In this document: one piece after another, positions 5,309 to 19,228 of the stretch
How the letters are laid out: each line of letters starts with the position of its first letter
How positions within the stretch are numbered: the stretch's first letter is position 1
Source: Proteobacteria bacterium UBA981
Lineage (GTDB): Bacteria; Pseudomonadota; Gammaproteobacteria; Ga0077536
Reading direction: 5' to 3'
NCBI GenBank assembly: GCA_002292285.1
Contig: DBBP01000002.1
Coordinates: forward strand, 133,214 to 197,213
Length of the DNA stretch: 64,000 bases
Translations under genes and position numbers: made by a program
Notes under the pieces: generated by a model
Told to the model about the DNA's origin: nothing
What the model saw: the letters and a program-made list of their open reading frames with translations, nothing else
Database searches by the model: none

Positions 5309-5836
5309 ATGCGCTATTTCTCCCTCGGTATCCTCGTCGCTTCACTCACCCTATGTGCGCCGTTGTTGTGGGCCGTCGATGTCAGCGTCGGCCAACCGGC
5401 GCCGCAGTTCGAACTAACGGGTTCCGACGGCGCACTGCACGACCTTGCGAGCTATCGCGGTAAAACTGTGGTGATCGCCTGGTTCCCGAAAGCGTTTACC
5501 GGTGGCTGAACGGCCGAGTGCAAATCGCTCCGTGAGAGTGGTGAATCATTACGTGAATTCGATGTGGTTTATTTCATGGCGAGTACCGAAGACATCGCTA
5601 CCACTACTGCCTTTGCGCAAGCTAATCAGGCAGATTTCGTGATTCTGAGTGATGCAGGAAAAGACGTCGCACGGGCCTATGGGGTGTTAACACCGGCTGG
5701 ATATGCAGCACGCAGAACGTTTTACATCGATCCGACAGGCGTCGTGAGTTTCATCGATTCGCAAGTTAGCGCGTTACACGCCGGCCGCGATATCGCGGCC
5801 AGACTGTCAGCACTTGGCACCGCCGGGGCGCGCTGA
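5309..5836 (+). CDS. periplasmic peroxiredoxin (BCP/PrxQ-like) with in-frame TGA at 5507-5509 at the peroxidatic Cys position; candidate selenoprotein (or TGA-disrupted pseudogene)
   Basis: ORFs 5165-5509 and 5564-5836 share a frame and are separated only by TGA. Joined translation reads KTVVIAWFPKAFTGG-[TGA]-TAECKSLRESGESLREFDVVYFMASTEDIATTTAFAQANQADFVILSDAGKDVARAYGV, collinear with E. coli BCP (FYPKAMTPGCTVQA...VLGISTD...FTLLSD). The TGA falls exactly in the PxxxTxxC motif. ATG at 5309 with SD AGAGG; signal peptide MRYFSLGILVASLTLCAPLLWA. Confidence 0.65.
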
Positions 5837-7278: not shown

Positions 7279-8700
7279 CTAGCGGAGTGGCTGCAGGTCT
7301 GACAACTCCGCTTGCGTCGCGCATAAGCGCCGGGTTACGACCCTAAATCGGGCAATCAGCAAGATACCGGCCGTCAACAGCGCAGTTGCCAGACCGATCC
7401 AGATGCCGCGCGCGCCATAGCCGAGCACGATGCCCAACACATAGGCAAGCGTGAACCCGAGTCCCCAGTAGTTGGCGGCGTTCAACAGCAGCGGTACGCG
7501 AGTATCTTTCAGACCGCGCAGCGAAAATGCCGCTGCCACCTGAATACCGTCGCCGAGTTGCAACACGGCCGCGATGCGGAACAAATCTGCGACCAGAACA
7601 GCGAGTTCAGCATCGTCGGTGTAGACGGCTGTAATCGTGTCGGCGAGAAAAAAAGTCGTGACCGCCGAGATTAACGACAGCGAGCCACACAACACGATTC
7701 CCGTATAGCCGATTCGCGCTGCTGCCACGACATCCAGGCGCCCTACTGCATGACCGACACAAACGGTCAGCGCCATAGCGAGCCCTAGCGGAACCATGAA
7801 CACGAGACCGGAATAGTTCAGCACGATCTGATGGCCGGCGACGGCAAATGTTCCTAATGCCCCCATCATCAGCGCGACACAGGTGAACAATCCGGATTGC
7901 AGGAACAGCGACAATCCGATCGGTACCCCAAGTGTTAACAGGCGACTCAAGGCGCGTGCTTCCGGCCAGCTCCAGTGCCGCCATAGTCCGAACGCGCGAT
8001 AGTGTCGCGACCGACCGACGTAAAGCGCCAACAGCGCGAACATGATCCAGAAGCTGATCCCGTTGCCGAGACCGCAACCCACCGCGCCAAGCTGCGGCGC
8101 ACCGAAGCGTCCGAACATGAACGTGTAATTCAGCGCGATGTTGATTGGTAACGCCACGGCCATCACAACCATGATCGGCACCGTACGACCGACGCCTTCG
8201 CTCATCTGCTTCAAGGTGTGATAAGCATAGGCGGCAAATACGCCCCAACTCAACGCGTCCAGATAACCCTGCGCCAAAGTGCATACATCTGTGGCAATGC
8301 CCATCATCAATAGCAGCGGTTCTATCGAACGCATGGCAACAACGATGATCACGCTGATCACCAAACCAAGCCAAAAACCCTGGCGCGTGTCGTCGCCAAT
8401 CTCGTGGCCGCGCCCGGCGCCGAAATGTTGCGCGACCGTTGGCCCAATCGCCATGATGGTTCCAAGCCCGAGTAGAAACAGCGCTATCCATATCCCGGAA
8501 CCAATCGCAACGGCGGCAAGCTGCGTCGCACCGAGCGTTGAGGCCATAAGCGTATCCGCGACGGTCACGCCAATACTCGAAACGTTGTTGATAATGAGGG
8601 GCAGGCCAACCCGGAAAATAATCCCGAGGTCGGATGCCAGATGTCCACCGCGCAGTTTCAGCACGGGCGATTTTCCGCTTCCAGCAGATTTAGAACGCTC
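7279..8700 (-). CDS. MATE family efflux transporter (true start likely internal to the 515-aa ORF)
   Basis: 12-TM polytopic protein with MATE-like duplicated halves. The longest ORF (to 8826) would overlap the upstream ABC ATPase gene by 127 nt, so an internal or alternative start near 8700 is more plausible. Confidence 0.65.
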   Translation of the reverse strand, partial: ERSKSAGSGKSPVLKLRGGHLASDLGIIFRVGLPLIINNVSSIGVTVADTLMASTLGATQLAAVAIGSGIWIALFLLGLGTIMAIGPTVAQHFGAGRGHEIGDDTRQGFWLGLVISVIIVVAMRSIEPLLLMMGIATDVCTLAQGYLDALSWGVFAAYAYHTLKQMSEGVGRTVPIMVVMAVALPINIALNYTFMFGRFGAPQLGAVGCGLGNGISFWIMFALLALYVGRSRHYRAFGLWRHWSWPEARALSRLLTLGVPIGLSLFLQSGLFTCVALMMGALGTFAVAGHQIVLNYSGLVFMVPLGLAMALTVCVGHAVGRLDVVAAARIGYTGIVLCGSLSLISAVTTFFLADTITAVYTDDAELAVLVADLFRIAAVLQLGDGIQVAAAFSLRGLKDTRVPLLLNAANYWGLGFTLAYVLGIVLGYGARGIWIGLATALLTAGILLIARFRVVTRRLCATQAELSDLQPLR

Positions 8701-10327
8701 AAGCGGCCGTATCAATAACAGGAACTGCAGCCAAAAGAGCGCGTGTGTAATCGTGTTGCGGCCGCTGCAGAATCTGTTCCACATCGCCGTATTCGACAAT
8801 CTGACCCTGGTACATAACCGCGACACGATGAGCGAGATACGCCACCACCCCGATATTGTGGGTGACGAACAGATAAGTCAGCCCCAGCCGCCCTTGCAGG
8901 TCGCGTAACAACTCGAGAATCTGCGCTTGTACAGAAACATCCAGTGCGCTGGTTGGTTCGTCGCACACGATCAGTTTCGGATCGACAGCGAGCGCACGCG
9001 CAATACAAATTCTCTGTCGTTGTCCGCCCGAAAATTCGTGCGGATAGCGCAAGGCGTGCAACGGCTCCAGACCGACCTGCACGAGTAGCTCGGCAACGCG
9101 CGCATCCTGCTGTTGCATGGAACCGCCCAGCTTCTGCGCGAGCATCCCCTCTTTAACGATATCGCCAACAGTCATGCGCGGGTTCATTGATGAATACGGA
9201 TCCTGGAAAACAACTTGCAACTCACCACGTAGTTTGCGCATTTGCGCACGACTCAATTCAGCGAGATTGTGCCCGTCATAGGAGACTTGTCCGTGTGCGA
9301 TGTCGGTGAGGCGTAATATGCCCTTCCCCATCGTTGTTTTGCCCGACCCGGACTCACCGACGACAGCGAGGGTCTGCCCCCGAATAATCTCGAGGTTAAC
9401 GCCATCGACAGCCTTCACATGTCCGACGGTTCGACGTAAAACACCACGCTTAATCGGGAACCAGACTTTCATGTCACGAACGGTGAGAATTGGCTGCTCA
9501 TCCACGGCCTCGGGTTGATGCCCCTCGCGCAAGCGTTTTTCCCAGCTTGGCAGCGAGTCGAATAGCTGCCGCGAATACTCATGTTGTGGGTTGCTGTAAA
9601 AAGTGTCGCGACGTCCCTGTTCGACGATGCGGCCGTTCTTCATCACCACGACACGATCGGCCACCTGGTGCGCGACCGCGAGATCATGAGTAATAAACAA
9701 AATACCCATGTTGCGCTTGCGCTGAATCGATTTGATCAACTCAAGTACCTGAGCTTGAATAGTGACGTCGAGTGCTGTCGTCGGTTCGTCGGCGACCAGA
9801 AGTTTCGGATCGCCCGCCAGCGCAATTGCGACCATCACCCGTTGCTTCATGCCGCCTGAGAACTGGTGCGGATACTCATCCAGGCGTCTGTGTGAATCCG
9901 CGATGCCGACATCATCCATCAGTTCTTGTACGCGTTGCCGCAACGCTTGCCCACGCAGTCCGTGGTGACGACGTACGGTTTCTCCGATTTGAGCCCCGAT
10001 CGTCATGACCGGATTGAGCGACGACTGCGGCTCCTGGAAGATCATGCCGATCGCGGCGCCGCGAACGTCGCGCATACGGTATTCCGGAAACTTGAATATA
10101 TCCTCGCCGGCGAGCAGGACCCGCCCACTGTGAATTCTGGCCGTTGGTGGCAACAAACGCGCAATGGCAAGCGCCGATAGCGACTTTCCACTGCCGGACT
10201 CGCCAACCAGGACGACGGTTTCTCCTGCATCGATGTCGAAACTAATGCCGTCTACGGCTCGTGTCAGCGCCTCACCGTGACCGAAGTGGATAGCGAGATC
10301 CTCCACGCTCAGCAAAGTCTCACTCAT
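8699..10327 (-). CDS. ABC transporter ATP-binding protein with two fused nucleotide-binding domains (YejF/DppDF-like)
   Basis: 542 aa; two Walker A motifs (GESGSGKS twice), two LSGGQ/LSGGM signatures, two Walker B motifs. Confidence 0.85.
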   Translation of the reverse strand: MSETLLSVEDLAIHFGHGEALTRAVDGISFDIDAGETVVLVGESGSGKSLSALAIARLLPPTARIHSGRVLLAGEDIFKFPEYRMRDVRGAAIGMIFQEPQSSLNPVMTIGAQIGETVRRHHGLRGQALRQRVQELMDDVGIADSHRRLDEYPHQFSGGMKQRVMVAIALAGDPKLLVADEPTTALDVTIQAQVLELIKSIQRKRNMGILFITHDLAVAHQVADRVVVMKNGRIVEQGRRDTFYSNPQHEYSRQLFDSLPSWEKRLREGHQPEAVDEQPILTVRDMKVWFPIKRGVLRRTVGHVKAVDGVNLEIIRGQTLAVVGESGSGKTTMGKGILRLTDIAHGQVSYDGHNLAELSRAQMRKLRGELQVVFQDPYSSMNPRMTVGDIVKEGMLAQKLGGSMQQQDARVAELLVQVGLEPLHALRYPHEFSGGQRQRICIARALAVDPKLIVCDEPTSALDVSVQAQILELLRDLQGRLGLTYLFVTHNIGVVAYLAHRVAVMYQGQIVEYGDVEQILQRPQHDYTRALLAAVPVIDTAA

Positions 10328-10348
10328 CGCAGCTTGCCTCTCCTGGCC

Positions 10349-12415
10349 TCACAGGGCGTGCCAACCGGGGTCGGCGGCGAAGCGCGAGCCGAATTGATCC
10401 TCGAATCGTTGCAGACGAAATAATATTTCACCAATACCGCGGTCCCGCGCGTACTGGATTGGGCCGCCGCGAAATGGCGCGAAGCCGGCACCAAACACCA
10501 ACGCGACGTCGATTAGATCCGCGTTATCGACGATCCCTTCACGCAAACAGGCAACCGCCTCATTAAGGAGCGGCAGCAGCAGGCGGTCGCGGATATCAGC
10601 GGTCGCGGCGCCGCTTTGCGATCGACTGCGTGGTAATCTTTGCCGCGCTATCTTGCCATTCACATAAGCGTGGTAGCCGGTGTTTGATTTGCGCCCAAGG
10701 CGCCCAGCACTAACGTGCCCGCGTAGACTCTGTGGCACCTCGCCGCCAAATGCCGCGCCAAGAATTTCCCCAACGTGCAGGCAAATATCGAGCCCGACTG
10801 TATCGGCAAGCTCGAGGGGGCCCATCGGCATGCCGAAGCTTTTCGCGACAGCATCGATCTCCGTTGCCTGTAAACCTTGTTCGAGCATCAACATCGCTTC
10901 TTGCAGGTAGGGTGACAGGACCCGGTTGATTAAGAACCCTGGCGCACTGCGCGCACGCAAGGGTAAGCGATCAATGGCCGTGGTGAAGGCCGCTGCTCGC
11001 GTCACAACGGCCTCATCAGTCTGTTCGGAACTGATAATTTCGACCAACTGCATTTGTTGGACGGGATTGAAAAAATGAATGCCGACCAAGCGCGTCGGAT
11101 CATTCAGCGACGAGGCGATATCAGTCAGCGGAATACTGGACGTGTTGGTCGCCAGTATCGCGTCCGGCCGTGCCCGAGCTTCCAGTGCGCTGAACAACTC
11201 ACGCTTCGCTTCAACGTCCTCGATAATCGCCTCGATAATCACGTCGGCGCGCACGATGCCGTCGCCATCAAAGTCGGCGACCAGGCGATCGCCAAGCATT
11301 AAACGCTCATGGCGCCGCTTGACCCGACGATCGAAAAGACCGGCGGCACGTTGCATGGCGGGGGCGATGTACTGCGGAGCGCGATCTTGCAAGGTCACGT
11401 GCATGCCACGCAGAGCGCACCAGGCAGCGATGTCGCCCCCCATCGTACCGGCGCCGACAACGTGTACGTGTGTTGGTTGCTTAGCAGAGGACTCGATGGC
11501 GCGCTTGAGCCCCTCCTGAAGCTTGAACAAACGAACCAGATTGCGGCTTGCCGGACTGACCAGTAATCGCGCCACAGACCGTGCTTCCTCGGGATACATC
11601 CGAGTAGGGTTACCGGCGAATCGCTGCCATAAATCGAGGAGTGAATACGGTGCCGGGTAGTGTTGCGGCAGTACTTTTTTGGCGACTTCGTTGCGGGTAA
11701 TACGGGCGACTATGGGTCGAGCCAAAGCATGCGAGGCGAGGCGCTTGGTAACGCCTGGGGTACGCTGCTGCTGCCGCTTGTGGACAAACGATAGTGCGGC
11801 TGCATCGAGGTGACGGGTCGGGACTGCGCGGTCAATCAAACCGCACTGTTCGGCACGCCGTGCGTCCACCAGGCGCCCGGTTAACATCAAGTCCAGTGCA
11901 GCTGGCGCGCCACAATAACGTACGGCTCTAACGGTCCCTCCAAAGCCCGGGTGAATGCCCAGCAACACCTCCGGGAAACCCAACCGGGTCGCCCGACCGT
12001 CGTCGGCAACAATATGCTTACATGCCAACGCCAATTCCAGTCCACCACCGAGGCAAAATCCGTGCACGCGCGCGACGCTCGGAAAGCTCAGATTCTCGAT
12101 CCGCGCAAAGAGTGAGTGCACCTCGTCAATTCGCTTTACAGTGTCGTCGACATCGAGCATCTGCTCGAACTCGCGCACATCTGCACCTGCAGCGAACCCA
12201 CTCTCTTTAGCCGAATAGACGATCAAGCCGCGCGGGCGCTCGGCGACAACAGCATCGATGGCGACCTGCAACTCCTGCAAAACCAGTGAGGACAGGGTGT
12301 TGGTTGACTCGCCAGCGCAATCCAGGCCAAGCCACAAAATATCGTCTGCATCGCGATACAGCTGCCAGTTGTGCAGGTCTTCAAGCGCGACCGGCGTTTT
12401 CGATGTGTCGTTCAT
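10349..12415 (-). CDS. fatty-acid oxidation complex alpha subunit (enoyl-CoA hydratase + 3-hydroxyacyl-CoA dehydrogenase), FadJ/FadB-like
   Basis: 688 aa; N-terminal crotonase fold, central NAD-binding VGAGTMGGDIAAW, C-terminal 3HCDH domain. Gene order thiolase then dehydrogenase resembles fadIJ. Confidence 0.8.
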   Translation of the reverse strand: MNDTSKTPVALEDLHNWQLYRDADDILWLGLDCAGESTNTLSSLVLQELQVAIDAVVAERPRGLIVYSAKESGFAAGADVREFEQMLDVDDTVKRIDEVHSLFARIENLSFPSVARVHGFCLGGGLELALACKHIVADDGRATRLGFPEVLLGIHPGFGGTVRAVRYCGAPAALDLMLTGRLVDARRAEQCGLIDRAVPTRHLDAAALSFVHKRQQQRTPGVTKRLASHALARPIVARITRNEVAKKVLPQHYPAPYSLLDLWQRFAGNPTRMYPEEARSVARLLVSPASRNLVRLFKLQEGLKRAIESSAKQPTHVHVVGAGTMGGDIAAWCALRGMHVTLQDRAPQYIAPAMQRAAGLFDRRVKRRHERLMLGDRLVADFDGDGIVRADVIIEAIIEDVEAKRELFSALEARARPDAILATNTSSIPLTDIASSLNDPTRLVGIHFFNPVQQMQLVEIISSEQTDEAVVTRAAAFTTAIDRLPLRARSAPGFLINRVLSPYLQEAMLMLEQGLQATEIDAVAKSFGMPMGPLELADTVGLDICLHVGEILGAAFGGEVPQSLRGHVSAGRLGRKSNTGYHAYVNGKIARQRLPRSRSQSGAATADIRDRLLLPLLNEAVACLREGIVDNADLIDVALVFGAGFAPFRGGPIQYARDRGIGEILFRLQRFEDQFGSRFAADPGWHAL

Positions 12416-13731
12416 GTGCGCTCAACCAGCATTGCGCCGCCCTGCCCACCACCAATACAGATCGCAGCAACGCCACGCCTGGCCTGCCTTTGCTCAAGGA
12501 CCTTAAGGAGATGCAAAACAATGCGCGCGCCACTGCTACCGACCGGATGTCCCAACGCGATCGCGCCGCCGTCAACGTTCAACTGCCCCTCGTCAATGCG
12601 TCCCATCGCGTTGCGTAAACCGAGTTCCTTGCGGCAGTAATCCACATCATCGAAAGCCCGGATACAGGCAAGCACCTGGCCTGCAAACGCTTCGTTAATT
12701 TCCCAATAGTCAATCATGTCGAAATTCAAGCGGCGACGCTTGAGTAACGGTGTCGCTGCGTGTACCGGGCCAAACCCCATTTGCGCAGGGTCGAGACCTG
12801 CCCATTGCGTGTCGACGAGCTTGCCGAGCACCGGCAACTTGTGGTCGTTCACGGCCTGCTCGCTGGCCAGCAATACCCACGCTGCACCGTCGGTAATCTG
12901 TGAGCTATTGGCCGCCGTGACGTTACCAAATTCGCGGTCGAAAAACGGCTTTAGTCTGGCAAGTTTCTGTACGCTCGAGTCCGGCCGTACGCCGTCATCG
13001 TGATCGTAGACCTGACCGTTTGTGTCTATCAGTGGCACGATTTCGTCGAGACGCCCGGCAGCTTGCGCTTCGGCCAGTCTGTGATGACTTCTTACCGCGT
13101 AGGTATCCATGGCGAGACGGTCGATCCCATAACGTCGACTGATCACTTCGGCGGTCTGCCCCATCGACAGACCAACCACGGGATCCGTGAGACCGAGCAA
13201 TAACGCGATAACGGGTTTCAGATGCATGGGGCGTAAGCTGGCAATAACCCCCAAGCGTTGGCGCAAATTTCGCGCCGCCGCCCATTGCGCTAGCAGAGCA
13301 GTAGTCTCGCGCGAAAACAGCACGGGTGCATGGCTCATCGACTCGGTGCCGCCAGCCAGAATCAGATCAGCACGTCCACTGACAATCGCGCCCGCCGCGC
13401 TATCTATGGCCTGCATACCGGACGCGCAATTGCGCTGCACGGTCCAGGCCGGAACCTGATCGCCACAACCCAGGCGCAACGACACGACGCGCGCGATATT
13501 GGCCTCCTCTGGGCCGGGCATAATGCAGCCAACAATGACTTCATCGAGTTCCGGCGGCTCGAATTGCTGCCTCGCCAACAACGGGCGCGCGGCGTGAACG
13601 GCGAGATCGGAGGGTCGAAACGGTCCCGGCCCCACCCGTGCCTTCAGAAACGGTGTTCGCGTTCCGTCAACGATGTACACCGCCCGTCGCGCTGGGCTGC
13701 GGGAAGTTGTGCGATTTGCTGCCTTAGCCAC
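12412..13731 (-). CDS. acetyl-CoA C-acyltransferase (3-ketoacyl-CoA thiolase), FadI/FadA-like
   Basis: 439 aa thiolase fold; catalytic-Cys region and C-terminal GGGQGGAMLVE motif. A 4-bp overlap with the downstream dehydrogenase gene indicates translational coupling. Confidence 0.8.
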   Translation of the reverse strand: MAKAANRTTSRSPARRAVYIVDGTRTPFLKARVGPGPFRPSDLAVHAARPLLARQQFEPPELDEVIVGCIMPGPEEANIARVVSLRLGCGDQVPAWTVQRNCASGMQAIDSAAGAIVSGRADLILAGGTESMSHAPVLFSRETTALLAQWAAARNLRQRLGVIASLRPMHLKPVIALLLGLTDPVVGLSMGQTAEVISRRYGIDRLAMDTYAVRSHHRLAEAQAAGRLDEIVPLIDTNGQVYDHDDGVRPDSSVQKLARLKPFFDREFGNVTAANSSQITDGAAWVLLASEQAVNDHKLPVLGKLVDTQWAGLDPAQMGFGPVHAATPLLKRRRLNFDMIDYWEINEAFAGQVLACIRAFDDVDYCRKELGLRNAMGRIDEGQLNVDGGAIALGHPVGSSGARIVLHLLKVLEQRQARRGVAAICIGGGQGGAMLVERT

Positions 13732-13789
13732 AAGCGATTACCCGACGGACTCAATTTGCACAGCCGATTCCCTACTTCGGATCACGAAT

Positions 13790-15193
13790 TCAGCGCGCTT
13801 CACGTAAGCGCGGGTCGAAAGCATCACGGACCGCATCCGCGAACACGTTTGCAGCAAGAACCAGAATAAACATAAACAAAAAGGCTGCGCATAGCGACCA
13901 CCACACGACCGGTTCGCGGGCGAGTTCGAGGCGCGCACTGTTAATCATGTTGCCCCACGATTCCATGCTTGGGTCGACACCAATATCGATGTAGGTCAGG
14001 GCCGCCTCGGCAAGCACCAAGCCACTGAAATCGAGGACGATTGAAATCATCACAATATGCATGATGTTGGGTACGATATGACGCACCACGATGACCCAAT
14101 GTGCGACGCCAAATGCGCGTGCCGCAACAATGAAATCAGCCTCGCGGAGTTTCAGAGCCTCGCCGCGTAAATAACGGCACAGTCCCGTCCAGGTCGTGAC
14201 GCCAAGGATCATGCAGAGCGCCAGTAGCCGTAAATCGGCACGCGCTGCAAGGTTTGCAAAATCTTCGCCGTGGCGTGCCATATAGACTTCGAGCATCAGC
14301 GCCGAGGCGGCAATCAACAGGACGCCGGGAATCGATGATAGCGTGGTGTAAATGTACTGGATAACATCGTCAACCCAGCCACGAAAATAGCCGGCTGCGA
14401 TGCCGAGCACGATAGCAAACGGCAACATCACCAGGGTAGTCAGCGTGCCAATCAGGAGACCGGTGCGAATGCTCTTAATCGCCTGATATAGCACGTCTGT
14501 CCCGACTTTATCGGTACCCATGATGTGGTAATAAGGCCCTACTCGCACGCAAAATCCGACAGCCATCGCAAGCAACATGACGGTTAGCACGATGGCCCGC
14601 CATGGAACTTCTGTACGACCGCTCACCACGGCGCTCAGGCTTTCCGACCAGGGTCCGGCAGTGCTGCGGGCACGCAAGGTCACGATGACCAGCACCACTG
14701 CCAGCGTTGCGCCGAGCCCCAGCACGACACCCCCCAGGCTGCGCTGCATAATGTCTGAACGGCGCTCCAGTGGATCCCGTAAATGGACGCCGGCATGGCG
14801 CAGGCGAGGATAATCGCGTCGGGTTGCGCCACCCTCCACCTCGATGGTTTCTTTAGCGTAGGCATAAATCGCGAAGGGCGCCGAATAGGTTTTCTCGAAG
14901 TTGTTCTTCAGTGGTGCTATCAACAACTCAAGTACGCTACTGATTTCGCCACTGTGCCTGGTATCCGAATTCTCAGCACCGTCAAGGCGCGGATGGAAAT
15001 GGCACGAGTCCAGTACCGCCACGAGCAAGAATGCACTCAGTACTACAGCCGCTGACATCCCCAATGGTCGGCGCGACACTTGTCGCCAGGGTGCGGCAAG
15101 ATGCTCGCGCCGTGATGCGTAAATGGCATACACCGAAATGCTCGTGAGGAGCACGAAAAACAGCACGTCGGTGGTCAGGAATACGATTTGCAT
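13790..15193 (-). CDS. ABC transporter permease (DppC/OppC/YejE-like) with extended N-terminal region
   Basis: 467 aa; C-terminal half carries the BPD-transporter inner-membrane domain; long N-terminal TM and periplasmic extension. Confidence 0.75.
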   Translation of the reverse strand: MQIVFLTTDVLFFVLLTSISVYAIYASRREHLAAPWRQVSRRPLGMSAAVVLSAFLLVAVLDSCHFHPRLDGAENSDTRHSGEISSVLELLIAPLKNNFEKTYSAPFAIYAYAKETIEVEGGATRRDYPRLRHAGVHLRDPLERRSDIMQRSLGGVVLGLGATLAVVLVIVTLRARSTAGPWSESLSAVVSGRTEVPWRAIVLTVMLLAMAVGFCVRVGPYYHIMGTDKVGTDVLYQAIKSIRTGLLIGTLTTLVMLPFAIVLGIAAGYFRGWVDDVIQYIYTTLSSIPGVLLIAASALMLEVYMARHGEDFANLAARADLRLLALCMILGVTTWTGLCRYLRGEALKLREADFIVAARAFGVAHWVIVVRHIVPNIMHIVMISIVLDFSGLVLAEAALTYIDIGVDPSMESWGNMINSARLELAREPVVWWSLCAAFLFMFILVLAANVFADAVRDAFDPRLREAR

Positions 15194-15196
15194 TAG

Positions 15197-16174
15197 TTAG
15201 TTCAGGCGAACTCTGGGGTCAACCATGGTGTAGGAAATGTCGGTCAGAACCAGTCCAATGATGTACAGAACCGAGCCCAGAAAGACCATCGCTCTAACGA
15301 TGGCGAAATCCTGAGACTGGATTGCCTCGATGGTGTAGCTGCCGAGACCGGGAATTCCAAAGAATGCTTCGGTAATGAGACTCCCTAGAAATAACGACGG
15401 CAATACGACAACAACGCCCGTCAGAATCGGGATCAATGCGTTGCGTAGTACGTGGCCGTAGAGAACCATCTTCTCGGACAAACCCTTAGCTCTTGCAGTG
15501 CGAACATAATCTCGATTGATCTCTTCGAGAAAAATCGTTCTATACCAGCGTGTGCCGTGCCCAAGGCCTCCGATAACGCCGATCAGGACGGGCAGGGCAA
15601 GAAATTTGATCGCAGAAAAACCGACGTCATAGCCGGAAATCGGCACCAGGCGAAGCATCTTCCCGATCAAAAACTGCCCGCCGATAATGTAGAACAAGCC
15701 GGAAATGGACATCATCGCAACGCAAATCACCACCGCCCAGGAGTCAATATACGTCCCTCGAAAAAAAGCGATCGCAAGCGCAATCGTGATGGTCAAAAGA
15801 AGACCGAGGACGAATACCGGCAAAGTAATCGCGAGACTCGGCCACATCCGTTGCGAAATGTCATAGCCAATATCCCGACCGCTATCTGATTGACCGAAGT
15901 CGAACAGGAAAAGTTTGACTGTATTGCGATAGAAAATCGTATCCGTAAAGCGCTCACTGCTCGACTGCGCTTCGTTAAACAGTAGCGGTTTATCGTAGCC
16001 TCGTTCCGATTTCCATTTCTCGATGGCCGTTGCAGTGACATGCTTGTTGCCCAGATGCAGGCGCGCCATGTCGTCTGGTGAGTTAACAACAAAAAACAAC
16101 ACGAACGTGATGACATTAACGCCCAGTAATATGGGGACCGCATACGCAAGCCGGCGAATAATGTAGGCGATCAT
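15197..16174 (-). CDS. ABC transporter permease (DppB/OppB/YejB-like)
   Basis: 325 aa; MIAYIIRRLAYAVPILLGV start typical of DppB-family permeases, 6 TM helices. Confidence 0.8.
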   Translation of the reverse strand: MIAYIIRRLAYAVPILLGVNVITFVLFFVVNSPDDMARLHLGNKHVTATAIEKWKSERGYDKPLLFNEAQSSSERFTDTIFYRNTVKLFLFDFGQSDSGRDIGYDISQRMWPSLAITLPVFVLGLLLTITIALAIAFFRGTYIDSWAVVICVAMMSISGLFYIIGGQFLIGKMLRLVPISGYDVGFSAIKFLALPVLIGVIGGLGHGTRWYRTIFLEEINRDYVRTARAKGLSEKMVLYGHVLRNALIPILTGVVVVLPSLFLGSLITEAFFGIPGLGSYTIEAIQSQDFAIVRAMVFLGSVLYIIGLVLTDISYTMVDPRVRLN

Positions 16175-18336
16175 CGCGCGGCGGCCCTCTGGCGCGCGAC
16201 ATAAGTTCGCCAGGCTGGCAATGCGCTAATGAGCAGAACGACGAACAACGCCGCCACTGGCCAGACAACGGCGTCATTCCATTGGCCGCGCTTGCGCTCG
16301 CGTAATTGTGCGTCGATAGTTTTGTACTTCAACGTGTTGCGCGCCATAAGATTCGGTTTCACGTTGCCGTACCAATCGTGATAGAGCGTATAGCCAGTTG
16401 GGTGAAAGCCCCATACCCATGGACTGTCCCGACGAAGTATTTCCGTCATATCGTTGATGAGTTCCTGCCGCTCAGAACCATCCGACATCGAGCGCATGCG
16501 CACGAACAATTCATCGAATCGGGGGTTCTGATAATTGACCGCATTCTCCCCCTGCGAGGCAACCTTGGCGTTGGGCCCGTACAGCAAGAATAGAAAATTC
16601 TCCGGATCGGGATAGTCAGCGTTCCAACCCCAACCAAAGATCTGCGCGCTACCTTTACGGATCTTTTCCTGAAAGCGGTTGTAGTCAGTCGCCCGGATCA
16701 CGAGTTGAATGCCGAGTTTATCGAACTGCTTGCGGTACCAGTTAAGCATCGCCTTGCTGCCCGGACCTGAGGAAACAGTTTCGAAATATAAGGTCAATTG
16801 TTCTCCGCTCTCAGCGTCGCGGCCGTCGGGATAACCAGCTTCACTCAGTAGTTCGCGCGCCGCTGCAACGGATTTCCGCACGGGATGGCCGTCACGCCAC
16901 TCGTAGACGTAGGGGTTAATCCCCTCGGGGCCGCCGATCTGACCAAAAATCCCAGGGGGGATAGGCCCCTGCGCAGGCACGCCGCGACCGTTAGCGAATA
17001 TCGAAATTAGCTCCTCGTAGTCGATAGCGATCGAGATGGCACGACGCAGCTTACGGGCGCGCTCGGTGTCCCCTCCTACAACATTGTCGACCATGTTGAA
17101 GCCGAGATAGGAAATGGACGTGGTCACCGCAGTGACCAGGTTAATGCCCTTTTCGCGCATAACGTTGGTGAGTTGAGCTTCACCTTGCGGGTTGAACTGG
17201 ATTGCCTGGTCAAAGCTATCGGAGAGAATGCTGGACGCATCGTAGTAGCCTTGCAGGAATTTGGTCCAGCCTGGAATAGCTTCTTTCTCGAGACTGTAGT
17301 GAGCCACGTCAATGAACGGCATGCGCTGGTCAGCGCTGGCCAGCAAGCCATTGCTCGCGTCATCCGCTGCGCCAGTCGTGGGATATAGCTCGCCGCGAAA
17401 ATTTGGATTTTTTACAAGCACCATGCGCCGATTCGGATTGTTTTCCGCGAGCATGTACGGTCCCGTACCAATCGGGTACCAATCCAGCGAAATATTGCGC
17501 GCCTTCATACCCGGTTGGTTGTAAAACGCGTCGGCCTCCCAAGGTACAGGCGCAAAAAAAGGCATGGCCAGCCAGTAACGGAACTGCGGGTACTTTTGCG
17601 TCAAACGGATTTCATAAGTGTAGCGATCGACGGCCTTCGCGCCCGCGAAGTCGTACGCGCGCAAATCGACGAAACTATCATTTGCATGCTCATCAGCGGC
17701 AACGCGGGTCGACAATTCCGGCAGCCCTTTGATGTACTTACCCATCAGCCCGGCTATCGGTGAATGCAAGTGCGGGTGTACCAGTCGTTTGATCTGGTAA
17801 ACATAGTCCTCAGCCACAAGCTCACGGCTTCCGGTAAGCTCGAAATCTGCGAGGGTCGCCCGATGTTCAAGGTCGGCTGCGGTCAACGTGTGATACTGAA
17901 AACCGTTGTTCTCGTTGCGCGCGAAGGCGGGATGCGGTTGGTACATGATGCCGGGCTGGATCTGTATCCGATACACGGTCTCCTGCACATCCTCCTGGGC
18001 CGCGTCGGCCGCTAGTTGTTGCCCGGAAGGGTCGAAATAAGTCGGCTCCGGCAGCGCAACCGCAGTCAGAGGAGTGAGTTCGTAGGGACGCTTCAGATAG
18101 TGATACTGGACCACTGGCTCGTAAATCTGACTGTTAAAGCGCGCCTCGTTTTCGCTGTATGAGGAGACCGGGTCGAGATGCTTGGGTCGCTCGCGGAACG
18201 AGTCGTAAAAAACCGCCTCGCTACTGCTCGACGCGGCATAGGGGTTGTTCAACGGGCCATCGCTGCAACCAATCAACGTCACGCACATAATCACGATGAC
18301 ACGGCGTGTGATTGCAGCTGTGATCGGAGATTGCAA
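16171..18336 (-). CDS. ABC transporter substrate-binding protein, family 5 (peptide/opine type, YejA-like), lipobox plus C-terminal hydrophobic tail
   Basis: 721 aa; N-terminal signal with LIGC lipobox; family-5 SBP core; unusual C-terminal predicted TM helix (AVVWPVAALFVVLLISALPAW). Confidence 0.75.
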   Translation of the reverse strand: MQSPITAAITRRVIVIMCVTLIGCSDGPLNNPYAASSSSEAVFYDSFRERPKHLDPVSSYSENEARFNSQIYEPVVQYHYLKRPYELTPLTAVALPEPTYFDPSGQQLAADAAQEDVQETVYRIQIQPGIMYQPHPAFARNENNGFQYHTLTAADLEHRATLADFELTGSRELVAEDYVYQIKRLVHPHLHSPIAGLMGKYIKGLPELSTRVAADEHANDSFVDLRAYDFAGAKAVDRYTYEIRLTQKYPQFRYWLAMPFFAPVPWEADAFYNQPGMKARNISLDWYPIGTGPYMLAENNPNRRMVLVKNPNFRGELYPTTGAADDASNGLLASADQRMPFIDVAHYSLEKEAIPGWTKFLQGYYDASSILSDSFDQAIQFNPQGEAQLTNVMREKGINLVTAVTTSISYLGFNMVDNVVGGDTERARKLRRAISIAIDYEELISIFANGRGVPAQGPIPPGIFGQIGGPEGINPYVYEWRDGHPVRKSVAAARELLSEAGYPDGRDAESGEQLTLYFETVSSGPGSKAMLNWYRKQFDKLGIQLVIRATDYNRFQEKIRKGSAQIFGWGWNADYPDPENFLFLLYGPNAKVASQGENAVNYQNPRFDELFVRMRSMSDGSERQELINDMTEILRRDSPWVWGFHPTGYTLYHDWYGNVKPNLMARNTLKYKTIDAQLRERKRGQWNDAVVWPVAALFVVLLISALPAWRTYVARQRAAAR

Positions 18337-18445
18337 AGTGATGGGCTACCACTAGAAAGGCTCAGGATTATAAACTCCGGCTGGACACTGTACACTCACC
18401 AGCCGTTCGGGAACGCTCAATCAGGTACAACAGGAAGGTCTCAAC

Positions 18446-19228
18446 ATGGGGATATTAGAAGGCAAGCGCGCGCTGATATTCGGCGTCGCCAGCAACAAAT
18501 CGATTGCCTGGGGAGTTGCTCGCGCCATGCAACGAGAGGGAGCCGAACTGGCCCTCACCTACCAGAATGAGCGACTGCAGTCGCGCGTAGAAGATTTCGC
18601 GGGCGAGCTGGGCTCAGAAATCACCCTGGAATGCGATGTTGCTACCGATGACAGTATCCAGAAGGCGTTCGAACACCTGGACGATTACTGGGACCATTTC
18701 GATATTCTGGTCCACTCCCTCGCCTACGCCCCGCGTGAGGAACTTCAGGGCGGCTATCTTGACAGTGTGACCCGCGAGGGATTCCGGGTCGCGCACGAAA
18801 TCAGCTCATACAGTTTCGCCGCGCTCGGCAATGCGGCCCGCCCGTTCATGAGTGGGCGCAACGGCGCCATGCTAACGCTGAGCTATCTGGGTGCTGTTCG
18901 CACCATGCCGAGCTACAACGTGATGGGCTTGGCCAAGGCCAGCCTTGAAGCCAACGTCCGCTATATGGCGGAAAGCCTTGGCCCCGAAGGCATTCGGGTC
19001 AATGGTGTTTCTGCCGGCCCGATTCGGACGCTGGCAGCATCCGGGGTGAAAGATTTACGCAAGTTTCTCGGTTACGTCGAAAACACCGCACCACTGCGTC
19101 GCAATGTCACGACGGACGAAGTCGGAAACGTCGCCGCATTCCTATGCTCAGACATGGCCTCCGCCGTGACCGGCGAAATCACCTTTGTCGACTGCGGTTT
19201 CAATATTATGGGACTGGCTGGCATCTGA
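18446..19228 (+). CDS. fabI: enoyl-[acyl-carrier-protein] reductase (NADH), FabI
   Basis: 260 aa; MGxLxGKRxLIxGVASxxSIAWG N-terminus and catalytic YxxxxxxK spacing, collinear with E. coli FabI. Confidence 0.9.

Follow-up and report, generated by a model that had tools for sequence, protein, structure and literature searches.

The stretch of DNA analyzed here, referred to below as the window, comprises 64,000 nucleotides (positions 133,214 to 197,213) of contig DBBP01000002.1 in assembly GCA_002292285.1 from Proteobacteria bacterium UBA981, a member of the Gammaproteobacteria. Its minus strand carries a row of genes for an ATP-binding cassette (ABC) importer of the Opp/Dpp superfamily, and a pair of genes for fatty acid beta-oxidation lies inside this row, between the genes for the permeases and the gene for the ATPase. 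The row starts with a family-5 substrate-binding protein (SBP) of 721 aa (positions 16171-18336; SBP_bac_5 PF00496, E-value 3e-50), which is followed by permease B, a DppB/OppB-type protein of 325 aa (15197-16174; BPD_transp_1 PF00528 and PF19300), and by permease C, a DppC/OppC-type protein of 467 aa (13790-15193; PF00528 at residues 260-464). Across a junction of 58 bp (13732-13789, minus strand), the beta-oxidation pair begins with a 439-aa 3-ketoacyl-CoA thiolase of the type found as the beta subunit of the trifunctional enzyme (TFE) (12412-13731; Thiolase_N/C). It continues with a 688-aa fused enoyl-CoA hydratase/3-hydroxyacyl-CoA dehydrogenase of the TFE alpha, FadJ-like type (10349-12415; ECH_1, 3HCDH_N and 3HCDH). 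A second junction of 21 bp (10328-10348, minus strand), which contains a GGAGAGG Shine-Dalgarno sequence, separates the pair from a YejF-like ABC ATPase of 542 aa with two fused nucleotide-binding domains (NBDs) (8699-10327; two ABC_tran PF00005 domains and oligo_HPY). The two junctions are the upstream and downstream edges of a variable slot, and the thiolase and FadJ-like genes place 3.4 kb between the permease genes and the ATPase gene of the importer. The remaining spacings are equally compact: the SBP and permease B genes share an ATGA overlap, permease B and permease C are 3 bp apart, and the thiolase stop and FadJ start share another ATGA overlap. An earlier note on this DNA had described the minus-strand order, the coordinates and the domains of these six open reading frames (ORFs), all of which were reproduced by ORF listing and Pfam search, and the 58-bp and 21-bp gaps and the 4-bp overlap of the two fad genes that it had given are exact to the base.

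The length of the first junction depends on the start codon of the thiolase, which is placed later by gene callers, with products of 407 or 422 aa and gaps of 154 or 109 bp, respectively. We assign the start to the GTG at position 13731, because the match of the protein to the NCBIfam model NF006030/PRK08170 begins at profile position 6 and because the starts of homologues lie at the corresponding site, 43-75 bp downstream of permease C; the 407-aa version would cut off the conserved N-terminus.

Both members of the pair can be assigned to a known enzyme type. The FadJ-like protein combines the hydratase and the dehydrogenase in one alpha subunit, with a separate thiolase gene immediately upstream, as is typical of FadIJ-type enzymes. 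In a sequence comparison with solved structures, this protein came nearest to E. coli FadJ (6ysv/8bnu) and human TFE-alpha, and the thiolase to human TFE-beta (6dv2) and E. coli FadI (8bnu). The catalytic residues that define a FadIJ-type trifunctional enzyme are intact in both proteins: in the FadJ-like protein, E127, E149, the G321-x-G323-x-x-G326 motif and H447 within HFFNP are invariant across 21 homologues, and the thiolase carries the motifs NCASG, NEAFA, GHP and CIGGG. As judged from their sequences, the two proteins are thus the beta and alpha subunits of a trifunctional beta-oxidation enzyme of the FadIJ/mitochondrial type, and both look functional. Neither reaches the equivalog level of the NCBIfam models, since the FadJ-like protein scored 507 bits against a cut-off of 869 (NF008363) and 428 against 968 (TIGR02440), and the thiolase scored 331 against 560 (NF006516) and 258 against 712 (TIGR02446) with the FadI models. 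The thiolase passes the acetyl-CoA C-acyltransferase model NF006030/PRK08170 with 728.4 bits against a cut-off of 593, over profile positions 6-432 of 434. Because the scores lie below the FadJ and FadI cut-offs, we regard the pair as a relative of FadIJ and not as an equivalog, so that the term "fadI/fadJ-like" of the earlier note holds for the architecture, the gene order and the closest solved structures, and does not extend to equivalog scores.

The importer has the set of components characteristic of the Opp/Dpp (PepT) superfamily: a family-5 SBP, two BPD_transp_1 permeases, and ATPase domains with oligo_HPY. A resemblance to the yejABEF system, an importer of microcin C and peptides, had been proposed as well, and it applies to the fused ATPase alone. 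This protein is 46% identical to E. coli YejF over its full length and shares its architecture, and its orthology to YejF is putative, with 610 bits against an equivalog cut-off of 834. The permeases are only 27% (permease B and YejB) and 27.5% (permease C and YejE) identical to their E. coli counterparts and are not at the level of the YejB and YejE models (96 bits against 445, and 60 against 439); the SBP has essentially no similarity to YejA and is not its ortholog (21% identity over 244 residues, E-value 1e-4). Permease C has an N-terminal extension of about 220 aa, which is kept among relatives in the alignment.

The SBP itself belongs to a large family, with 744 representatives (clusters at 50% identity) at an E-value of 1e-30 or better. 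An N-terminal lipoprotein signal (..VTLIGC) and a transmembrane helix at the C-terminus are evident from its translation. Among 120 SBP homologues (P0121-P0240), the C-terminal helix is present in 119 and the lipobox cysteine in 82. The protein would therefore be anchored in the membrane at both ends, which is, to our knowledge, unusual for an SBP of a Gram-negative bacterium. It is only remotely similar to HbpA, DppA and OppA, over the C-terminal half alone, and the nearest solved SBPs, which bind peptides, glutathione or haem, were likewise matched in the C-terminal half only (E-values 1e-21 to 1e-24). When the PDB was searched with a profile of the SBP, no relatives closer than those from the single sequence came up. 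An AlphaFold2 model of the SBP built on a 33-sequence alignment was too poor to be used (mean predicted local distance difference test score 64.9, predicted template modelling score 0.48).

Two further genes flank the row. Upstream of the SBP gene and divergent from it lies fabI, encoding an enoyl-ACP reductase (18446-19228, plus strand; PF13561), the product of which is 60% identical to E. coli FabI and scores 390 bits with FabI models, under their cut-offs. Divergent fabI adjoins the SBP gene in 44 of 48 readable loci as scored by script and in 47 of 48 after inspection. Downstream of the ATPase gene lies a gene for a MatE-family transporter (7279-8664, minus strand; PF01554), for which gene callers give a start with a product of 461 aa, leaving a gap of 34 bp. 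The mechanically called ORF is longer (7279-8826, minus strand, 515 aa, GTG start) and shares 128 bp with the ATPase gene; the more likely start is that of the 461-aa product, with the gene ending at 8664. A MatE gene also lies downstream of the ATPase gene in L024, L086-L088, L141, L155, L169 and L170 (labels of this form denote the loci compared in this work), and in the clade of the window the transcription unit probably ends with this gene.

Across a lineage of uncultured Gammaproteobacteria, the layout is old and has been conserved. An identical 688-aa protein in the same gene order was read on 21 contigs (32 index blocks) from ENA, NCBI, JGI and Logan, including the metagenome-assembled genome (MAG) GCA_002390245.1 from NCBI; the organism is present in Tara, JGI and ENA samples. 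In more divergent relatives, the recurring order is ppiD, fabI (opposite strand), SBP, permease B, permease C, thiolase, FadJ, ATPase and MatE. This layout was found in L006, L024 (a 5.8-Mb chromosome), L086, L087, L088 and L089, as well as in seven metagenome contigs (L126, L130, L132, L141, L152, L153 and L155). The FadJ-like proteins of these relatives are 54-66% identical to that of the window, and identity falls to 62% for the SBP and to 43% for PpiD. A further 25 pairs of FadJ and SBP homologue clusters report an equal size of the longest contig, which is indirect evidence of a shared contig. An artefact, in which assembly or binning had joined unrelated DNA, would have in its favor only that the source is a metagenome-assembled genome; the same order was seen on the 21 contigs, which come from independent samples and assemblers, and also on contigs of 1.3-5.9 Mb from divergent relatives, and this explanation is extremely improbable. 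The component parts all belong to known families, and it is their organization that is new, being unusual yet stable; no description of a fad pair nested in an importer operon was found in full-text literature searches.

Spacing in the clade of the window is tight as well: 25-75 bp separate permease C and thiolase, with a Shine-Dalgarno sequence before the thiolase ATG, and FadJ and ATPase genes are 0-40 bp apart or overlap, as they do in L087 and L088. Two relatives show deviations within the pair or next to it. In L089 (a 3.46-Mb contig), the thiolase is split into 326 and 105 aa and the FadJ-like protein into 301 and 382 aa (14683-18094), which points either to a decaying pair or to frameshift errors of long-read assembly. 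In L006, a groundwater MAG, two genes lie between FadJ and ATPase (12215-13820): an opposite-strand oxidoreductase gene, the product of which appears luciferase-like when assigned by eye from sequence, and a GNAT acetyltransferase gene.

Signals that could drive expression of the row were searched for in the window, where an Rfam scan returned seven tRNAs only and no riboswitch or leader near the operon. The best promoter-like site of the region is a candidate sigma-70-type promoter, TGTACA-16-TATAAT (18367-18394, minus strand; 10 of 12 matches), located in the 109-bp intergenic region between fabI and the SBP gene. At the same place, a block AGTGTACAG-N15-GTTTATAAT recurs in relatives from two clades of the importer family, X (that of the window) and Y1 (window 18337-18445, L006, L024, L086-L090, L093, L095, L107, L132 and L153). 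The match to a promoter and its conservation suggest that this block acts as the promoter of the row. Within clade X the promoter spacer also includes a palindrome, CTCCGGCCGGAG (perfect in L089), that may be the operator of a regulator. The window contains no other convincing copy of this palindrome, and matches occurred at chance level, so that no regulon is proposed.

Neither a terminator-like nor a promoter-like site was predicted in the 58-bp and 21-bp gaps. All predicted terminator-like sites fall inside genes and are no commoner than in shuffled sequence; given that the counts of promoter and terminator sites do not exceed those of shuffled sequence in the window and in L101, weight was placed only on the conserved promoter upstream of the SBP gene. 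The proposal of an importer operon that is interrupted by the fad pair, with most likely a common transcript for both, is supported by the tight junctions and the lack of terminator-like sites in the gaps, by the conserved SBP-upstream promoter, and by a gene order kept down to 54% FadJ and 62% SBP identity. The junctions are too short for signals of their own, and the genes from SBP through ATPase are therefore read by us as one message; a single transcript of this region is very likely on the evidence of gene anatomy and conservation. SBP, both permeases, thiolase, FadJ, ATPase and probably MatE would thus be expressed from the promoter on the fabI side, and the two ATGA overlaps would allow translational coupling. 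Given a single message, synthesis of the importer ATPase would depend on read-through of the fad pair.

The reading of this arrangement to which we give an even chance is coupling at the level of expression, without a shared substrate: the enzyme would carry out general beta-oxidation of fatty acyl-CoA and would not act on the cargo of the importer. Several points weigh against it. A promoter could possibly lie within the 3' end of the permease C or FadJ gene. The thiolase of the window has a GTG start and a weak Shine-Dalgarno sequence. Genes of acyl-CoA metabolism occupy the same junction in two clades with non-sister cassettes, which hints at selection. Finally, L006 separates FadJ from the ATPase gene, and read-through is therefore not obligatory everywhere.

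The last of these points also bears on a different explanation, in which the nested fad pair would be autonomous, with its own promoter and terminator and with a separate promoter for the ATPase, so that the association would be positional only. Such independence is suggested by the clade in which the slot contains thiolase, FadJ, FadD and YciA, where the gap between permease C and thiolase extends to 170-350 bp, is AT-rich and contains a conserved palindrome, AACGAGCGCTCGCTCTT, an exact match to which occurs in only three closely related loci. Weak promoter-like sites are present in both gaps of this slot, and the cassette looks as if it brings regulatory DNA and may keep its own control there; the ATPase gene of L006 shows, moreover, that it is separable from FadJ. 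The much shorter gaps or overlaps in the clade of the window argue otherwise, as do the two gaps of the window, which are free of predicted promoters and terminators, and the chance frequency of such sites elsewhere. We therefore consider full autonomy of the pair quite unlikely, and expression-level coupling is retained as the working interpretation of the window.

Outside the importer context, the same pair is common. A scan of a genome collection with the FadJ alignment returned 80 loci, in most of which the thiolase-FadJ pair is free of any transporter. Downstream of these free cassettes there is often a gene for a FadD-like ligase, for a YciA-like thioesterase or for both, and in 45 of the free loci a large FadE-type acyl-CoA dehydrogenase gene lies directly upstream of the thiolase gene. 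The pair therefore belongs to a generic and widely distributed beta-oxidation operon, composed of fadE, thiolase, fadJ and sometimes fadD and yciA, which occurs in Gammaproteobacteria, Bradyrhizobium and Legionella (loci L008-L085). In the window, the thiolase gene is preceded by permease C and not by fadE, and no homologue of fadE, fadD or yciA was found anywhere in the 64 kb.

The content of the slot was then surveyed in the importer family, using 84 loci with a readable junction between permease C and ATPase, collected by a metagenome scan with the permease C alignment and from other loci. The slot is empty (0-220 bp) in 46 loci, contains thiolase-FadJ in 14, thiolase-FadJ(-FadD-YciA) in 12 and only a YciA-like thioesterase in 7; the complete set of thiolase, FadJ, FadD and YciA is present in 4 of the 12, for example in L173 from MAG GCA_022565215.1. 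Where YciA is the sole occupant, the gene for this thioesterase fits closely between permease C and ATPase. Unrelated contents comprise HicAB in two loci (L124, 11443-11845; L129, 11301-11845), a 600-aa TPR/sulfotransferase-like gene in one (L120, 6327-8126) and a small DMT-like membrane protein in one (L113, 9363-9785); one more locus has no ATPase gene downstream. Of the 37 occupied slots, 33 contain acyl-CoA genes, and the presence of HicA/HicB, TPR/sulfotransferase-like and DMT-like genes shows that the junction tolerates insertions in general. The synteny comparison suggested by the earlier note thus gave a divided result: the ATPase gene directly follows the permeases in 46 of the 84 loci, whereas the whole clade of the window, apart from two nested empty-slot relatives described next, keeps the insertion.

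The history of the slot was reconstructed from neighbour-joining trees with 100 bootstraps. In the tree of permeases B and C, clade X, which includes the window, has 99% support, and the empty-slot loci L169 and L170 nest inside it, next to the subclade of the window (93%), which points to a clean secondary loss of the fad pair. The YciA-only and the thiolase-FadJ-FadD-YciA loci fall together in clade Y, which has 100% support. In this clade, the YciA proteins encoded in the slot form a monophyletic group (97%), and the YciA-only slot is therefore interpreted as a deletion derivative. In the tree of thiolase and FadJ, each of the two types of slot cassette is monophyletic in 100 of 100 bootstraps, and a clade uniting both types appeared in 0 of 100 replicates, or in 1 of 100 when the data were Dayhoff-recoded. 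FadD/YciA-bearing cassettes are 62-63% identical to free cassettes versus 58% to the type of the window. A long-branch or compositional artefact as the cause of the non-sister position of the cassettes was not supported by Dayhoff-6 recoding or by a check of distances to the outgroup, and the cassette clade of the window shows no rate acceleration.

Taken together, the trees point to capture on two separate occasions and to a single clean loss. We consider it rather probable that the cassette was captured twice at one junction, or captured once and then replaced. When the SBP is added to the transporter tree, X and Y become sisters with 64% support (75% with L112). A single capture with differential loss falls somewhat short of an even chance. 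The insertion is old in either case, because the fad genes match their neighbours in GC content at third codon positions (GC3; 0.64 against a range of 0.58-0.68), and because the slot cassettes of the window type form one clade with deep internal divergence (0.44 substitutions per site); base composition thus gives no evidence of a recent horizontal transfer of the pair. In an ancestor of this uncultured gammaproteobacterial lineage, a cassette without fadE would have been transplanted into the permease C-ATPase junction of an Opp/Dpp-superfamily ABC importer that belongs to the core genome and adjoins fabI, which would have resulted in an old operon chimera.

The recurrence of acyl-CoA genes at one junction raises the possibility that importer and enzymes also share a substrate. 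Under this scheme of metabolic coupling, the importer would take up a fatty-acyl compound (an N-acyl amino acid, a lipopeptide, a lysolipid or a free fatty acid) and the products of the slot genes would process its acyl chain: FadD would activate it, thiolase and FadJ would oxidize it and YciA would release CoA, so that nesting would have been selected for. It is consistent with this scheme that only acyl-CoA enzymes recur in the slot, that the non-sister cassettes of two clades suggest two captures at the same place, and that the association is kept over a deep divergence, with PpiD just 30-58% identical among loci. The tight packing of the thioesterase gene in YciA-only slots and the constant presence of fabI as a neighbour of the importer family point in the same direction, and the tethering of the SBP at both ends would suit a hydrophobic ligand. 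The opposite is indicated by the 46 family members with an empty slot, by the clean loss in the two relatives nested in the clade of the window and by the landing of unrelated genes in the slot. Free cassettes, moreover, are ordinary fadE-linked beta-oxidation operons without a transporter, the nearest solved SBPs bind peptides, glutathione or haem, and X and Y may be sisters, which would allow a single ancient capture followed by cassette replacement. A link between importer and enzymes through an acylated cargo is thus plausible from the sequences, and the metabolic scheme as a whole is held only tentatively. More speculative still, and in our estimate unlikely, is the broader proposal that the fabI-linked system, with its SBP anchored at both ends, is not a peptide importer but an Opp-superfamily importer of fatty-acyl compounds that feeds a dedicated FadD/trifunctional-enzyme/YciA module, recruited to its operon at least twice.

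If this broader proposal is true, the locus would be an ABC-type entry, not recognized before, through which Gram-negative bacteria channel lipid-type carbon to beta-oxidation. If the cargo is not related to lipids, the locus offers a well-documented example of genes that hitch-hike on the expression of the housekeeping operon around them. In addition, the series of slots, from empty through YciA, thiolase-FadJ and thiolase-FadJ-FadD-YciA to apparent clean loss, provides a natural experiment on the capture and shedding of genes by an operon, and the analysis flags a large uncharacterized family of fabI-adjoining transporters, the substrate of which may be lipid-related.

A separate observation concerns a frame elsewhere in the window (5309-5836, plus strand), which encodes a secreted peroxiredoxin of the AhpC/TSA type and contains a single in-frame TGA at 5507-5509, exactly at the position of the peroxidatic cysteine (..FPKAFTGG[TGA]TAEC..). 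Gene callers split it into two ORFs in the window and in the divergent relatives L086 and L088, and, given this recurrence, it is regarded as a candidate selenocysteine protein and not as a pseudogene. The hairpin that follows the UGA does not exceed shuffled sequence in stability, and a selenocysteine insertion sequence (SECIS) element is thus at best putative here.

Comparison with known systems places the two halves of the chimera in different contexts. The thiolase-FadJ pair shares the thiolase-first order, the domain set and the catalytic residues with E. coli FadIJ, the anaerobic trifunctional enzyme, and with human mitochondrial TFE (HADHA/HADHB), and differs from them in its location in a transporter operon and not in a fad operon. 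The free operons L008-L085 have the same order and spacing as the pair of the window (54-67% identity for thiolase, 46-53% for FadJ), whereas many of them have fadD and/or yciA downstream and the pair of the window has neither.

On the side of the transporter, E. coli YejABEF and P. aeruginosa NppA1A2BCD, which import peptides and peptidyl-nucleosides, likewise combine one SBP and two permeases with a single fused double-NBD ATPase; in contrast to these systems, the SBP of the window is about 720 aa long and predicted to be anchored at both ends, and the operon is interrupted by the fad genes. In P. aeruginosa, fabI is reportedly co-directional with the transporter genes, whereas in the window it is divergent. 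The sapABCDF-ycjD-fabI region of E. coli (L171, K-12, 1348000-1359000) shows another ABC operon of the Opp/Dpp superfamily adjoining fabI, although it has two separate ATPases and no fad genes, and the identity of its products to the importer of the window is 33-36% for SapD/F, 31% for SapB, 27% for SapC and marginal for SapA. The presence of fabI next to an Opp/Dpp-type operon in E. coli too hints at an old linkage of fabI and transporter in Gammaproteobacteria. The nearest parallel for the association of a lipid gene with a Yej-like importer appears to be the "opp-fabI operon" of P. aeruginosa, as named in the title of Mistry et al. 2013 (cited in PMC12728205).

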